DNA of 64,000 bases. Source: Candidatus Cloacimonadales bacterium (GTDB taxonomy: Bacteria; Cloacimonadota; Cloacimonadia; Cloacimonadales; JAFGVF01). Of this stretch, positions 7,934 to 42,423 are shown piece by piece (the first letter of the stretch is position 1; each line of letters starts with the position of its first letter). Below the pieces are notes generated by a model that searched no databases, had not been told where the DNA came from, and saw nothing but the letters and a program-made list of their open reading frames with translations. The position numbers and the translations under genes are program-made. The stretch lies in assembly GCA_963663475.2 (NCBI GenBank), contig CAXXJV010000001.1, positions 320,001 through 384,000 on the forward strand. The letters run 5' to 3'.

Positions 7934-8012
7934 CATCACTTACCCTTCCTTTACAGTCTTTCGATGAAAGTCCGTGTTTCATCGAAAGACTGTAAAGGAA
8001 GGGTAAGTGATG
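7934..8012. repeat. Perfect 36-bp-stem hairpin (copy 1 of 2)
   Basis: CATCACTTACCCTTCCTTTACAGTCTTTCGATGAAA, loop GTCCGTG, then the exact reverse complement. Homolog at 38686-38762. Confidence 0.95.
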
Positions 8013-8108: not shown

Positions 8109-8501
8109 ATGGAAAGAAAAAAGAATATGACTCATAAGATTCAAAAGACCTATAGTGAAAGTTTTAAAATTAAAGTTGTTGACGAAATAGAGAAGGGAGA
8201 TTTAACTCAAGCTGGAGCTTGTAGACTTTACAATATTTCAGATAGCAATGTGAGTAGATGGGTTGCCAATTATGGTATGAATGAACGAGTGGGAAAAAAG
8301 GTGGTAGTTATGACCGATAGAGAAATACGTGAATCTGACCTTTTAAGGAAAGAGAATAAGCAGTTAAAACGAGCATTAGAAGATAGTCAGTTCTCCAACG
8401 AAGTTCTAGAGAAATATATTCATTATATTGCAGAACAAAATGGTATTGATTTAAAAACAAGATCGATTCAGGTTTATCAGAAGATACTCAGAAACTCTTG
8501 A
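8109..8501 (+). CDS. IS3-family transposase OrfA (HTH + coiled coil)
   Basis: YSESFKIKVV...ACRLYNIS...VSRWV HTH followed by an LRKENKQLKRAL leucine zipper. Confidence 0.9.
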   Translation: MERKKNMTHKIQKTYSESFKIKVVDEIEKGDLTQAGACRLYNISDSNVSRWVANYGMNERVGKKVVVMTDREIRESDLLRKENKQLKRALEDSQFSNEVLEKYIHYIAEQNGIDLKTRSIQVYQKILRNS

Positions 8502-37239: not shown

Positions 37240-37625
37240 GGCTCTTGTTCAAGTCTGGTGGGGATAATCCCAGATAGTGTAGTAGAGCTTTAGTGAAGAG
37301 TGCAGATTATTCTAGCAAAATAGCTTACAGAATTTTGACGCATATATTTTATATATTCGGAGAAATTATGGAAGCTACTTTTGCAGAAGAATATAGTGCT
37401 ATTCACAAAGGTCTACTGCATTATTTGGGATAATATAGGTAAATGAGAATATTTCATTACAATATTGATTCATCAAAAATCCCTGAAAGATAAGATGCTG
37501 ACTTGTGAAGGCGTAGCTTTAGCGAAGATTCAAAGTATCGCAAGCCTGGGTAATGATGGCTAGCCCAAAGATATTACCCTGTAAGGGTTTAATAAAACGA
37601 TAAATAATGTATTATTATAATAAGT
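37240..37625 (+). mobile_element. MITE-A, truncated copy with nested insertions
   Basis: Starts GGCTCTTGTTCAAGTCTGGTGG; interrupted by MITE-B at 37269-37429 and by a ~31-bp insert near 37501-37531. Confidence 0.85.
37269..37429. mobile_element. MITE-B, 161 bp, nested in MITE-A
   Basis: IR CCCAGATAGTGTAGTAGAGCTTT / AAAGGTCTACTGCATTATTTGGG; ATAAT duplicated on both sides, single in uninterrupted MITE-A. Confidence 0.9.
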
Positions 37626-38489: not shown

Positions 38490-38685
38490 ATTATCCCCTT
38501 TTTAGCTTACCATTTTTTTATATCTGTTTCTCTTTTTATATATTTTACCACTAATGTCAAGCTTTATTGTTAACTTATTTTATCCTAGTATCTGAGACAA
38601 TTCATGAATTTATGAATTTATGGGTTTATCAACAACATGCTTATCAAGTTAGTTTTTTATTCTTGACCTTATTCATCCCCTACTC

Positions 38686-38762
38686 ATCCCTTACCCTTCC
38701 TTTACACTCTTTCGATGAAAGTCCAGGTTTCATCGAAAGAGTGTAAAGGAAGGGTAAGGGAT
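38686..38762. repeat. Perfect 35-bp-stem hairpin (copy 2 of 2)
   Basis: ATCCCTTACCCTTCCTTTACACTCTTTCGATGAAA, loop GTCCAGG, then the exact reverse complement. Confidence 0.95.
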
Positions 38763-38894
38763 CAATAAGGAAAATTTGAGACATTTCTTAGATTTTTTTG
38801 CTAAATAGGACCATTTTGAAAAAAATGGACCCTTAAAGATTATGAGGGCTTGTTAAAAAACTTCAAGAAAATCTAAGAAAAGGAGGATAAAGCA

Positions 38895-39611
38895 ATGGTT
38901 GTTATTGAATTTAAAATACCACACGGATTAAAAGCCAAAGCTAGAAGAGAGGGATATTCTCTAGTAAAATATTCAAAACAGCCCTTTTATCACCTCCGAA
39001 AAAAAAATTCTCCTAAAATAGGGAAAAATCATCATAAGTTCCGCAATACCATGCAAGAACTAAAAATATCTTATAGAAAGCTTAATGATGCTGAAAAGCT
39101 AGCACTGAAAGAAAGGAGAAAAAAGGAAGGAAGTACTAAGTCAGACTGGATTCAATTTGTCAGAGAATATTATAGAGGGATTAGTCGTCAAGCTCTTAAA
39201 GAAAAAAGACAAGTAAAAGCTCAAAACAAGAAAGATCAAGTTAACAAGCCACAAAAAGGAATTGAAAGTAAGAATTTAAGAGAAATGAAGAGTGACGAGA
39301 CTTGCTCACGGAGTAGCGACTTCCGACAAATCAACTTATATTCGTCCGAAGTCCCTTGCCTAGGGCTGAGGAAGTCTGGTCTCCAACCCTTATTGACGGG
39401 AGTTGCTCACGTAGTAGCGACTTCCGACAGCTTATATTCGTCCGAAGTCCCTTGCCTACGGCTGAGGAACTCCGGTCTCAAACAACTCAGCGACTTCCGA
39501 CACTCTTCACCCGAAGTCCCTTGCCTAGGGCTGAGGAAGTCTGGTCTCCAACTCACTATTTCATCAACACTATTTTGTGAGTTTGAGATTTTCCCTCAAC
39601 TTCAAGCCTAA
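38895..39611 (+). CDS. Hypothetical very basic protein; ~130 unique aa, with a C-terminal part read through repeat DNA
   Basis: Strong RBS AGGAGG; Lys/Arg-rich; from ~39285 the ORF translates the repeat units. Confidence 0.65.
   Translation: MVVIEFKIPHGLKAKARREGYSLVKYSKQPFYHLRKKNSPKIGKNHHKFRNTMQELKISYRKLNDAEKLALKERRKKEGSTKSDWIQFVREYYRGISRQALKEKRQVKAQNKKDQVNKPQKGIESKNLREMKSDETCSRSSDFRQINLYSSEVPCLGLRKSGLQPLLTGVAHVVATSDSLYSSEVPCLRLRNSGLKQLSDFRHSSPEVPCLGLRKSGLQLTISSTLFCEFEIFPQLQA
39285..39552. repeat. REP/REPIN-like hairpin units, family C (two full, one partial)
   Basis: Unit TGACGrGAsTTGCTCACGkAGTAGCGACTTCCGAC-variable loop-GTCCGAAGTCCCTTGCCTAsGGCTGAGGAAsTCyGGTCTC; arms are imperfect inverted repeats. 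Confidence 0.88.
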
Positions 39612-41754
39612 CAAAATAAATACCAGAGCTTACACTAGTAGACTGTGAGTTTTTTCCATCCCAAACATAGCTATGATAACCACTATTCAATAAACCTTGA
39701 TATAAACTTGCTACTTTCTGCCCTTTCAAATTATAAACTGCTAGGTGACCATAAGCTTTCTTAGGAAGAATGAAGCTAATTTTAGTCTCTGGATTGAAAG
39801 GATTAGGATAATTTCTAAGTCCAAAAGCTGATTCACTTGCTGGAATAACATCATCATCTTGATTAGAAACACCTATTGGCAACATTGGTATATCTAAATT
39901 TAATTCTAAGGACTCCATTATCATTACATCAGATATTATTACATCTTGATAATCCCAGCGACTTGCCTTAACAGTATAAGTCCCTGCTCCACAATGATAA
40001 GTGTAATTACCTAAGCTGTCACTAAATTCAGGAAGCTTATCTATAATCTCTATCCTAACACAATCTAAAGGCTGATTAGTGCTTGCATCATAGACATTGC
40101 CACTAAAACCACCAATATAGACTGAACCATACTCATAGGCTCCAATATCAACTATATCAGGATTACTCCCGTTTGCTGAAGCGATTCTTTTATGGTAGCG
40201 TAGGTCAAAATCTGGTAAATCAGGACCATAAGCTCCAGCATCTCTACAAGGTGATGAAGGAGATAAAGAGTAATTATGATTTAAAGTATCTGCAAAAAGT
40301 GGGTCTGCGTAAAGATGATTTTCTGTATAGTAATATGATGGGTAATCGATAATTGGAATTGTCCCAAGGTTATTAAAAAATGAGGTAATATACCCCCCAG
40401 AGTTTCCTCCATAGCTAGTTTGTATATCAATTATGTTATTTGTAAATATCGACGCAGAGCTTCCTCTAGCAGTAATCAGCCAAGAATTGTTTACAAATGT
40501 ATTATTATAGATATATGGTGATGTATCATAAGTGTAAAATAATAGTCCCGCAGGAGAATCTGCTGTTTGTCGCACTAGATTATTAAAAACCCTGATTTGT
40601 CCATCGGGTGCTAATAATGAACGTTTTTCAAAATCCATCACACTACTAACATGTTCATTAGTTTCAATTATATTATTATAAATATATGCTTTATTATTAT
40701 CTCTTGTTTCAGCAGTAACTTGAACGTTCCCAAATAGATAGTTATCAGATAGATAATTTGTTCCAAAACCCCCAGAATATAGATTTATGGGATCTAAGTC
40801 AACTACATTCTTAACTAAAGTATTTTTCCTAGCAAAAACTACTTCAGTTGAATCACCAGAATGACAGCCCCAGCCTCTTTTACCATTATAGGCATAATTA
40901 CCGTAACTGCTTATTCTTCCAAAGTTTATTTCTCTAGTTTCGGTAGCATTTACTTCTGAGCCAAAATTATAATAAGTATTAAAAAGGAATAAAGTTATCA
41001 GGTAACCTCCCGAAGAAGGATAATCTGAAGGACCATTAAAGTAACATCTTGCAATAACAAGATTATAAGCTTCATTAGGAGGGTTTTCTTCTGAAGGTCT
41101 AATTGATAATGGTGTAGGATTCCCATGAGGTAGTGGATATATGTTTGTAGTGATGAATCTACATTTATAAACAACTAAATCCATATTCAAGTTTCTTGTT
41201 CTGAGACCAACACAATTATTTTCGAATGTGCAGTTTTTAACATTAATTAAACCATTAAGAAAATTAATTGCACCTCGATGCCCTCCATGTATATAATTGG
41301 GGGTTTCATTGGGGACATAATTTCCAATAAAGGTATGTCTGATTTCACAATACTCGAATGATGAAATAGGAGCCTCTGGTGTTAAAGCAATACCTCCCCA
41401 CTGGTATTCACTGCCATCTTGATATTTATCAAAAATAATTGGGTCTTCTGGAGTACCGATAGCATTGATTGTCCCGTTAACAACTATCATCTTAGCAACT
41501 GGCTGTGTGGTATTACTGTAACTCCAATCAAAAAGAGCAGGATAATTCATGTCTGCTCCACTAACTAAAATTTCAGTTCCAGGCATGATAGTAAGAGTAA
41601 CACCAGAATCTATATAGAGAAAAGAAGTAACTATATAAGGATCATTATGATGAGGATACCAAAGAGTATTCTCTGTGATATGACCTCCTACTTCTATGGA
41701 AAGAAGAGGAAAGGCAATAAGAACTATGATAAACAATAATATATTGTTCTTCAT
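39556..41754 (-). CDS. Secreted parallel beta-helix protein with CarboxypepD-reg-like domain and FlgD-Ig/T9SS-type CTD
   Basis: GVTLTIMPGT, AIGTPEDPIIF, SPCRDAG, DIGAYEY, GTYTVKASRWDY; C-terminus NYPNPFNPETKISF...HKIVLMK. Confidence 0.87.
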   Translation of the reverse strand: MKNNILLFIIVLIAFPLLSIEVGGHITENTLWYPHHNDPYIVTSFLYIDSGVTLTIMPGTEILVSGADMNYPALFDWSYSNTTQPVAKMIVVNGTINAIGTPEDPIIFDKYQDGSEYQWGGIALTPEAPISSFEYCEIRHTFIGNYVPNETPNYIHGGHRGAINFLNGLINVKNCTFENNCVGLRTRNLNMDLVVYKCRFITTNIYPLPHGNPTPLSIRPSEENPPNEAYNLVIARCYFNGPSDYPSSGGYLITLFLFNTYYNFGSEVNATETREINFGRISSYGNYAYNGKRGWGCHSGDSTEVVFARKNTLVKNVVDLDPINLYSGGFGTNYLSDNYLFGNVQVTAETRDNNKAYIYNNIIETNEHVSSVMDFEKRSLLAPDGQIRVFNNLVRQTADSPAGLLFYTYDTSPYIYNNTFVNNSWLITARGSSASIFTNNIIDIQTSYGGNSGGYITSFFNNLGTIPIIDYPSYYYTENHLYADPLFADTLNHNYSLSPSSPCRDAGAYGPDLPDFDLRYHKRIASANGSNPDIVDIGAYEYGSVYIGGFSGNVYDASTNQPLDCVRIEIIDKLPEFSDSLGNYTYHCGAGTYTVKASRWDYQDVIISDVMIMESLELNLDIPMLPIGVSNQDDDVIPASESAFGLRNYPNPFNPETKISFILPKKAYGHLAVYNLKGQKVASLYQGLLNSGYHSYVWDGKNSQSTSVSSGIYFVRLEVEGKSQTHKIVLMK

Positions 41755-41811
41755 TGTAACTCCTTTAAATATTCGGAGCTTAGGTAATAAGCCTAAGCCC
41801 TTTTAGTTTTT

Positions 41812-41835
41812 TTATTTCATTAACATCATTTTATG
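41812..41835 (-). pseudogene. Orphan tail of another CTD gene (HKMMLMK*)
   Basis: Minus strand reads CAT AAA ATG ATG TTA ATG AAA TAA, followed by hairpin GCTTAGG/CCTAAGC; in-frame stop ~13 codons upstream. Confidence 0.6.
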
Positions 41836-42138
41836 TAGTCTATGTGTATTCTTTGGAATTATAACTACCAAGCACGATTATAGTACAAATATTAACAATT
41901 ATTATGTCAAGATATATTTTGATTATTATTTCCCTCATTAGTGATTAAGAATATTCATTAACAAGTTTACTTCCCTACTAGTATTTTCTTTTTATGTCGT
42001 TGAACATATCACTTTCATTCAAGAGTTCAGATATTCTCATTATAACTTTTTATGATCACTCAATTGATTAAAAAAGTAAGTCTTATTCTTCTAGGAAGGC
42101 TTGATGGTGAATCCAAGTAGTGCAGTATATCTTTAGTG

Positions 42139-42320
42139 ATGAGGAGTGACGGGAGTTGCTCACGGAGTAGCGACTTCCGACAAATCAACTTATATTCGTC
42201 CGAAGTCCCTTGCCTACGGCTGAGGAACTCCGGTCTCCAACTTAGCGACTTCCGACTGACATCTCTTTTGTCTTTCGTCCCAAGTCCCTTGCCTAGAGCT
42301 GAGGAAGTCCGGTCTCCAAC
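42139..42320. repeat. REP/REPIN-like hairpin units, family C (one full, one partial), same orientation as 39285-39552
   Basis: Near-identical to 39285-39387, including loop AAATCAACTTATATTC. Confidence 0.88.
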
Positions 42321-42423
42321 TCTAGGATTATTTACACTATACTCAAAGTTTAATAAAATTATACTTGACACTAATTATACCATACTTAAGTTTTGAATAT
42401 ATAATAAATAAAGTGGAGGAGAT

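Follow-up and report, generated by a model that had tools for sequence, protein, structure and literature searches.

Copies of a long DNA palindrome are spaced more evenly along the chromosome of a Candidatus Cloacimonadales bacterium than random placement predicts. The stretch analysed here (the window) comprises 64,000 nucleotides (nt) of contig C1 (G000:C1:320001-384000; assembly GCA_963663475.2) from a 3.30-Mb genome, G000, which is 99% complete on two contigs, C1 and C2. The window carries a perfect 35-bp palindrome with the 7-nt loop GTCCAGG at positions 38686-38762 (no strand assigned), followed by a small basic open reading frame (ORF). This palindrome is one of 95 family copies in G000, 81 on C1 and 14 on C2, found by blastn and palindrome tracing across the genome. 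The hairpin is best read as a DNA-level element rather than as the leader of a single gene. We tentatively suggest a palindromic element akin to REPINs and miniature inverted-repeat transposable elements (MITEs), which would exclude further copies in cis and have the small basic protein as a candidate binding partner. Behind this reading we rank, in descending order of probability, architectural chromosome sites, purging of close copies, passive relics, and the RNA-protein cassette of the original prediction.

Spacing along the chromosome

The 80 gaps between neighbouring copies on C1 average 35.7 kb (coefficient of variation, CV, 0.52), the smallest being 13,777 bp. Across 20,000 simulations of uniform placement on C1, the mean CV was 0.98 and the lowest 0.66, and no minimum gap exceeded 4,408 bp. 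Simulations limited to intergenic regions (all, at least 300 nt, or at least 500 nt) likewise gave a CV of about 1.0 with a minimum of 0.67. None of the 80 observed gaps is shorter than 13.7 kb, against 25-27 such gaps in the intergenic simulations (minimum 13). Two other repeat families of G000 serve as internal controls. Family B, with 60 loci, has a CV of 1.02 and a minimum gap of 382 bp, and the repeat at window positions 37293-37548, with 240 loci, has a CV of 1.13. The hairpin copies are over-dispersed on C1, while the control families are Poisson-like. Dispersed bacterial repeats are normally random or clumped in placement, and neither over-dispersion of palindromic repeats nor this family turned up in literature searches.

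The gap distribution would fit random placement combined with a hard exclusion of about 14-17 kb. The explanation we favour is cis-acting target immunity at insertion, as known for Mu, Tn3 and Tn7, in which a resident copy would make about 14 kb of adjacent DNA a poor target. The sole close pair lies on C2, where a canonical copy stands 1.1 kb from an old copy with a variant core. The variant is typical of the sister species G001, and the old copy is orthologous to one in the congener G004. Since the only close pair includes a variant-core copy, the distance-measuring process seems to read the core sequence.

The same spacing could arise after insertion, if copies inserted at random and pairs closer than about 14 kb were lost by recombination or replication-linked breakage, deleting either the interval or one copy. 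The palindromes are direct and inverted repeats of one another at once, and the mutated core in the one surviving close pair is in line with such purging. Loop orientation differs moderately between replichores (Fisher p = 0.002-0.03, according to where the origin is set), a bias that hints at replication-linked processes. SbcD (TIGR00619) has no match in G000, so that palindromes can persist there. However, the two control repeats, 100-250 bp long and of similar identity, are not over-dispersed, so generic homologous recombination fails to explain the spacing. A model of deletion tolerance would also predict a soft edge with many gaps of 5-13 kb, which is not the hard edge seen on C1, and neighbouring copies are not less alike than random pairs. 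We regard purging as distinctly unlikely. Loss of SbcD was considered separately as an enabling factor and rejected. Of 61 genomes sampled from the order, 10 have bona fide SbcD, G003 and the hairpin-rich G001 among them, and the hairpin-poor G002, G004 and G006 lack it just as G000 does.

Structure and genomic context of the palindromes

The family is well delimited. An nhmmer search of G000 with the --max setting added merely 12 marginal matches, all with E > 0.8, and 92 of 100 tight long palindromes recovered by a blind scan of the whole genome are family members. Copies are intergenic palindromes of 80-100 bp with stems of 23-46 bp, and sequence conservation is limited to about 48 nt on either side of the palindrome centre. 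Within each arm an apical core of 26 bp is nearly invariant and the outer 10-20 bp are variable, while the loop consists of GTCC and three variable bases. In 44 of the 95 copies the inner 30 bp pair without a mismatch. Among 27 aligned copies, 91% of cells are paired and 11 of 40 pairs have changed on both sides. These copies have a covariation score of 0.111, against 0.065 in shuffled alignments (0 of 500 shuffles reach the observed score) and 0.020-0.052 in slid controls. Either selection on a folded strand or correction of one arm by the other in a DNA palindrome would be expected to produce such symmetry, which does not imply RNA. The near invariance of the apical core and GTCC loop looks as if a sequence-specific protein reads them. 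The basal stem drifts but remains paired.

The perfect 35-bp stem of the original prediction is present, imperfect pairs extend it to 43 nt per arm, and the family-conserved element around it spans about 38674-38774. The fold predicted for positions 38670-38900 (231 nt) reaches -97 kcal/mol, compared with -48.7 +/- 4.1 in 200 shuffles (z = -11.7, no shuffle equal). The covarying copy noted earlier at 7934-8012 (no strand assigned) is also real, with a 36-bp stem, the loop GTCCGTG and paired changes on both arms relative to the first copy; no paralog of the small ORF follows it. A 30-nt arm pattern matches four times in the window and in none of 100 shuffles. Three independent short-read DNA assemblies from three studies retain the hairpin at the window site, with contigs breaking at repeats, and in the same assemblies the sequencing depth of the hairpin bin is many times single-copy depth. 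A separate ORF (8110-8300) starts 97 nt downstream of the second palindrome; judged by eye, it has a helix-turn-helix-like N-terminus and resembles an IS3-family OrfA.

According to our own crude ORF calls (at least 90 aa), 90 of the 95 copies lie outside genes. These intergenic copies are enriched at strand switches, with 29 between divergent and 20 between convergent genes against a background of about 10% each. An intrinsic terminator reading was rejected on the count between divergent genes and on the lack of a T-run after the window stem. Other repeats abound in the 50-300 nt to either side, so that the palindromes sit in repeat nests. Family B (13 of 52 loci) and the 240-locus repeat (48 of 206) are both over-represented within 1 kb of a palindrome, as are IS21-like elements, 5 of 15 of which lie within 380-611 nt. 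Three copies (C1:245164-245230, 1400369-1400435 and 2454369-2454435) have flanks that are about 98% identical. A palindrome stands 635 nt upstream of the 16S gene at the two ribosomal RNA (rRNA) operons that were scanned, and the common flank suggests the same at the third. One nest, at G000:C2:353750-354150, additionally contains a tandem array of four GC-rich units, each about 52 nt long (CCCGTAACCACTTGGCATCTGCGTAACCGCGGGCTGGAATCCCGCGACCCAA), along with three small GTAAGCA..TGCTTAC hairpins; the same-site sequence of G004 has neither.

This context could also be that of architectural sites, at which cruciforms or protein-bound duplex palindromes organise the chromosome as domain boundaries, supercoil sinks or bridging points. 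Spacing would then be set by selection rather than insertion, and the small basic protein would be a nucleoid-associated binder that autoregulates through its upstream copy. Over-dispersion confined to the palindrome family, enrichment at strand switches and the position before 16S genes all agree with such a role. So do a core kept across copies, and in a G004 ortholog whose flanking genes are only about 78% identical, and a hairpin upstream of every ORF copy, as expected of an auto-regulated binder. A precedent is seen in the Escherichia coli REP (repetitive extragenic palindromic) cruciforms, described as bridged by HU and naRNA4 (PMC4550694). On the other side, the closest relatives hold no copies (G006) or three (G004), so any architectural role would be new to the G000 species. 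The sister species carries a diverged sequence at other positions, and a 77-bp perfect palindrome far exceeds what a protein site needs. We consider architectural sites unlikely, although they head the list of alternatives.

The leader and the small basic ORF

The frame downstream of the window hairpin is open from 38895 to 39611 (238 aa), and the AGGAGG ribosome-binding site described earlier does lie 8 nt before its ATG at 38895. Between hairpin and ORF, on the plus strand, a leader block GGACCATTTT..AAAATGGACCC..TTATGAGGG (38803-38850) is kept upstream of the ORF in paralogs and congeners. The orthologous leaders in G002-G006 share the conserved block GGACCATTTT..AAAATGGACCC..TATGAGGG. Judged by its sequence, the block resembles a promoter or operator and may serve the small ORF as such. 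A 17-nt inverted repeat closes the leader at 38784-38880 (plus strand; arms 38784-38800 and 38864-38880, 94% complementary). Its left arm occurs only in the window copy and the copy at C2:59530, the two youngest, and the closing repeat is therefore not a conserved structure. The second structured block of the original prediction is thus real in its closing repeat and its inner hairpin GGACCATTTT/AAAATGGACC, while the 13-bp closing repeat is confined to those two copies. The roughly 200 nt thought to be conserved as a single structure do not form one unit, since conservation ends about 48 nt from the hairpin centre.

The ORF was earlier described as an orphan of about 130 Lys/Arg-rich residues. 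It is small, basic and assigned to no family, but the conserved core covers only about 95-100 aa (100 aa in the window, 38895-39194, plus strand). The rest of the frame (39195-39611, plus strand) is a tail not conserved among paralogs. Past residue ~130 it enters an unrelated repeat, running from 39293 through three tandem or degenerate units of family B (39293-39556, no strand assigned). A tblastn search of G000 finds seven paralogs, whose tails differ and read into whatever comes next. Purifying selection acts on the core. Older paralog pairs have a ratio of nonsynonymous to synonymous substitution (dN/dS) of 0.12-0.28, and dS ranges from 0 to about 1.5, indicating a real, selected gene with duplications that span a long time.

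All seven paralogs have a hairpin upstream, at 133, 133, 202, 385, 141, 192 and 194 nt, while 88 of the 95 hairpins have no such ORF nearby. Among nearby gene families, the ORF family is the only one that is fully hairpin-linked; within 2.5 kb of a hairpin lie 5 of 15 IS21-like genes and 6 of 41 members of a beta-helix family, against a background of 17%. The ORF, a genus-specific gene, has been duplicated together with an upstream hairpin. Recent paralogs are colinear in hairpin, leader and ORF, with a C2 copy 98% identical over 806 nt and a locus at C1:1248286-1248809 showing 82% identity from the hairpin edge through the ORF. The protein could be the element's DNA-binding partner, acting as a recognition, regulation or immunity factor rather than as a catalytic transposase.

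Colinear recent paralogs would also be expected if the hairpins were passive relics, either decaying remnants or simple regulatory stems (terminators or RNase III sites), with a duplicated segment holding both hairpin and ORF. However, the stem has no T-run behind it, the spacing of the 95 copies is non-random, and hairpins beside paralogs diverged to dS 0.6-1.5 retain the consensus core. Co-duplication alone is therefore insufficient, and constraint, conversion, repeated association or later insertion is needed. The hairpin before the ORF at C1:195825 looks independently associated, given that four congener ORF loci are without one. A relic origin appears improbable.

Among 232 genomes of the phylum, the ORF is found in all six congeners (G001-G006), usually as a single copy, and elsewhere only as four weak matches (E ~1e-4). 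Five genomes of the family's other genera gave no significant match. The single ORF of G002, G004, G005 and G006 is flanked by orthologs of two G000 genes with 32 kb between them, and at the G003 locus one of these two flanks was matched. The single G001 copy is preceded, at about 700 nt, by a variant hairpin of its own. A word-indexed search returned five matches among 5.8 billion clustered proteins, and a profile search of 1.8 billion representatives returned ten, including a few relatives of 95-98 aa at about 34-44% identity. The AlphaFold model predicts a helix, a beta-hairpin and three helices, with a predicted local distance difference test score of 71. Its best score in the ESM Atlas is 0.88, to hypothetical proteins only. 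In an exhaustive structural scan, modelled residues 50-100 align with many ribbon-helix-helix domains (Z 3.7-5.3, root-mean-square deviation 2-3.5 A, ~44 residues), at Z values in the tool's uninformative range, making the resemblance a lead only. A predicted homodimer of the core scored 0.00, which is evidence neither way.

The original prediction saw in hairpin, leader and ORF an RNA-protein or origin-protein cassette, in which a structured noncoding RNA (hairpin and multi-branch leader) and a small protein disperse as a unit. The complete linkage of ORF to hairpin, the strong predicted fold and the compensating stem changes agree with such a cassette, and the module indeed lacks any transposase, reverse transcriptase or HUH motif. 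Yet most hairpins stand without the ORF, and there is no sign of an RNA product. Hairpins are found in both orientations, some of them in divergent promoter regions, the closing helix of the leader is unconserved, and arm symmetry is equally expected of DNA palindromes. Rfam 15 gave no match in the window at gathering score; at an E-value threshold only generic long-hairpin miRNA models appeared, far under their cut-offs. One RNA run yielded no assembled contig over 38213-39014, which proves nothing either way. Two outcomes had been named as speaking against the cassette, namely homologs lacking the upstream structure and a high-copy repeat placed without regard to the ORF. The hairpin is a 95-copy repeat and four congener loci lack it, but the G000 paralogs are linked to it without exception. 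Each outcome is therefore only half borne out, and the original prediction is supported in part. We regard the cassette itself as very improbable.

Recent expansion among relatives

The palindromes are lineage-specific and have expanded recently. G006 and G004 are the closest relatives of G000, with 87-94% nucleotide identity in genes. Across 41 related genomes, blastn detected the hairpin in two, G000 and G004. A covariance model built from the 27 copies, with at most 150 candidates scored per genome, found three loci in G004, one weak match in G003 and one in G011, and among those candidates no hairpin in G002, G005 or G006. In G001 the model gave 84 matches representing at least 44 loci, each on a separate contig of a fragmented assembly; their cores are diverged and their loops 10 nt long. 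Of 26 flank matches from G001, only 2 fall within 1.2 kb of a G000 hairpin, about the number expected by chance, and hairpin positions are thus not common to the two species. Three of four G000 sites checked have collinear flanks in G006 with the hairpin absent there, and the fourth lies at a rearrangement. One nest measures 1.1 kb in G000 and 157 nt in G004. Two copies are common to G000 and G004, so the family is older than their split. Separate recent expansions in two species, as reconstructed from these genomes, are how mobile DNA behaves, and the distribution fits a selfish DNA element.

We make no claim that hairpins act as synteny breakpoints. The flanks of 8 of 10 G001 loci map far apart in G000, a count that comes without a control set, while the collinear sites in G006 and the location of other breakpoints away from hairpins argue against the idea. 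Scans with the arm pattern gave no match in viral contigs and one chance match in metagenome contigs, inside a recN-like gene. Among genome contigs they matched one Cloacimonadales metagenome-assembled genome (MAG), in keeping with the placement of the organism in that order, and, with a single arm and counted as chance, one Woeseiaceae MAG.

Weighing an element with cis exclusion

Several observations weigh against an excluding mobile element. No driver enzyme was found. Every blastn and nhmmer match in G000 is a whole palindrome, with no solo arms and no full-length elements bearing palindrome ends. In the listed flanks no direct repeat marks a shared boundary, as a target-site duplication would. 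Comparison with the empty sites of G006 and G004, by MAFFT and blastn in the case of G006, fixed neither the element ends nor a target-site duplication, because the intergenic DNA is too diverged. The Tn3 transposase family (PF01526) has no match in G000; TniB (PF05621) has two, both generic AAA+ proteins, and also matches in 13 of 14 unrelated genomes. No specific relative of MuB or TnsC was detected, and MuA and TnsB families were outside the search. Adjacent copies resemble each other no more than random pairs do, which also led us to reject local hopping. The retained core beside old paralogs counts here too, as do the ORF loci of G002, G003, G004 and G006, which keep the leader block and have no long hairpin. 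The latter indicate that the basic function of the ORF is independent of the hairpin. The ORF has no family in Pfam, PHROGs or NCBIfam, its model gives nothing at E <= 0.001 in Foldseek against the Protein Data Bank, and only five residues are invariant across its distant homologs. To our knowledge, immunity is undescribed for such tiny elements, and literature searches returned no report of it.

Two candidate drivers were rejected. Five Y1 (IS200/RAYT-like) genes match PF01797, and two of them lie 0.5-1.3 kb from hairpins, but Y1 genes are flanked by a different REP family and never by the big palindrome. The 731-bp units at G000:C1:2619015-2619745 and C1:1463985-1464714 combine a 151-aa gene with inverted ~57-nt TTAGCCCAGGGT..ACCCTGGGTAA hairpins, which have 60-90 further copies in G000. 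These units look like a separate REP/RAYT-like system, and close orthologs of the 151-aa gene occur in G001, G003, G004 and G005. An IS21-like element was rejected as parent, since its ends and the hairpin arms show no relationship (best score of a local alignment, 8).

A broader reading would have a new chromosomal spacing system that pairs a long palindrome with its own basic protein of about 100 aa. Such a system could be either a miniature element with cis-immunity that operates without Mu-, Tn3- or Tn7-type machinery, or a set of evenly placed architectural sites, one per 15-35-kb domain and including the position before all three rRNA operons. We consider this broader reading on the whole unlikely. 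The analysis demonstrates the family with its structure and covariation, its over-dispersion and recent expansion, the complete linkage of ORF to hairpin and purifying selection on the ORF; the mechanism of mobility, immunity and binding of the protein to the hairpin are inferred from these patterns.

Neighbouring repeats and mobile elements

The window hairpin is part of a 3.8-kb block (38504-42337, no strand assigned), whose other components are the ORF, family B repeats with a second copy at 42139-42322, and a 732-aa gene. The block is absent at the syntenic site, where G004 has 480 nt and G006 has 192 nt instead. A copy of the 732-aa gene (39556-41754, minus strand) with 93% identity occurs at another place in G006, indicating that the gene moved or was copied into the repeat nest. 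Upstream, the repeat at 37265-37548 belongs to a family of 170-250 bp whose spacing is Poisson-like or clumped and which contains a short, conserved frame resembling an ORF. It has very high depth in independent metagenome assemblies, and related copies occur in all congeners searched. The IS21-like element measures 2,369 bp at G000:C1:1757910-1760278 and occurs at 14 other loci, in two subfamilies about 77% identical. Several copies adjoin family B repeats, and sequence features suggest that its ORFs are IstA- and IstB-like.

Comparison with known systems

Apart from the close pair on C2, 95 copies at least about 14 kb apart imply a process that measures distance on the chromosome. Candidates are transposition immunity of a 100-bp element and selection that favours structural sites at even intervals. 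Either, if true, would provide a new testable handle on how DNA tens of kilobases apart is sensed in the bacterial nucleoid. The spacing pattern also gives a lead on what an orphan protein family does. For annotation, the findings are a warning that the apparent leader of this ORF is a genome-wide repeat and its long tail a read-through into another.

The small protein shares its size and basic character with ribbon-helix-helix proteins (the TraM N-domain, antitoxins, omega and ParG), along with the weak alignment of model residues 50-100. Its predicted N-terminal half, a helix and a beta-hairpin, is unlike that fold, and no sequence family matches. MITEs and palindromic miniature elements include ERIC, Correia and RPE. 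Like MITEs, the G000 palindromes are small, non-coding, intergenic and multi-copy, with two inverted arms and species-specific bursts. They differ in that no insertion sequence with matching ends was seen as a parent, nor were solo ends or a target-site duplication seen; their stems are also far longer and more perfect, and their spacing is non-random.

The likeness to the REPIN/RAYT system is closer. REPINs are described as symmetric, with compensating changes between sides, and as persisting with the host lineage (PMC3116915). The G000 family shares with them high-copy, lineage-specific extragenic palindromes of about 100 nt, symmetric and with compensating changes, that form a long hairpin. 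In REPINs the ends are conserved and the middle varies; the G000 family instead has a conserved apex and a variable base. REPINs are reported in that paper as randomly distributed in extragenic space, unlike the over-dispersed palindromes. Moreover, the Y1/RAYT-like genes of G000 are flanked by another REP family, and the gene linked to the palindromes encodes a protein of ~100 aa without an HUH motif. REP sequences and bacterial interspersed mosaic elements offer a second analogy. The E. coli REP325 repeats are extragenic, cruciform-capable palindromes for which connection by the small basic DNA-binding protein HU together with naRNA4 has been proposed (PMC4550694), and a small basic protein may be a comparable connector here. 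E. coli REPs are short, GC-rich and clustered, while the G000 family is known from sequence alone.

For exclusion at a distance, the closest parallel is the cis-immunity of Mu, Tn3 and Tn7. In Mu it is reported as strongest at about 5 kb and decaying over 5-25 kb, with Tn3 and Tn7 reaching further (PMC7350765). Those elements are large and encode a DDE transposase and, in Mu and Tn7, an AAA+ target protein, whereas immunity in G000 is deduced from spacing alone. An exclusion of 14 kb falls within the ranges reported there, and the insertion deficit near a resident copy that characterises immunity is matched in G000 by a standing pattern, the complete lack of short gaps on C1.

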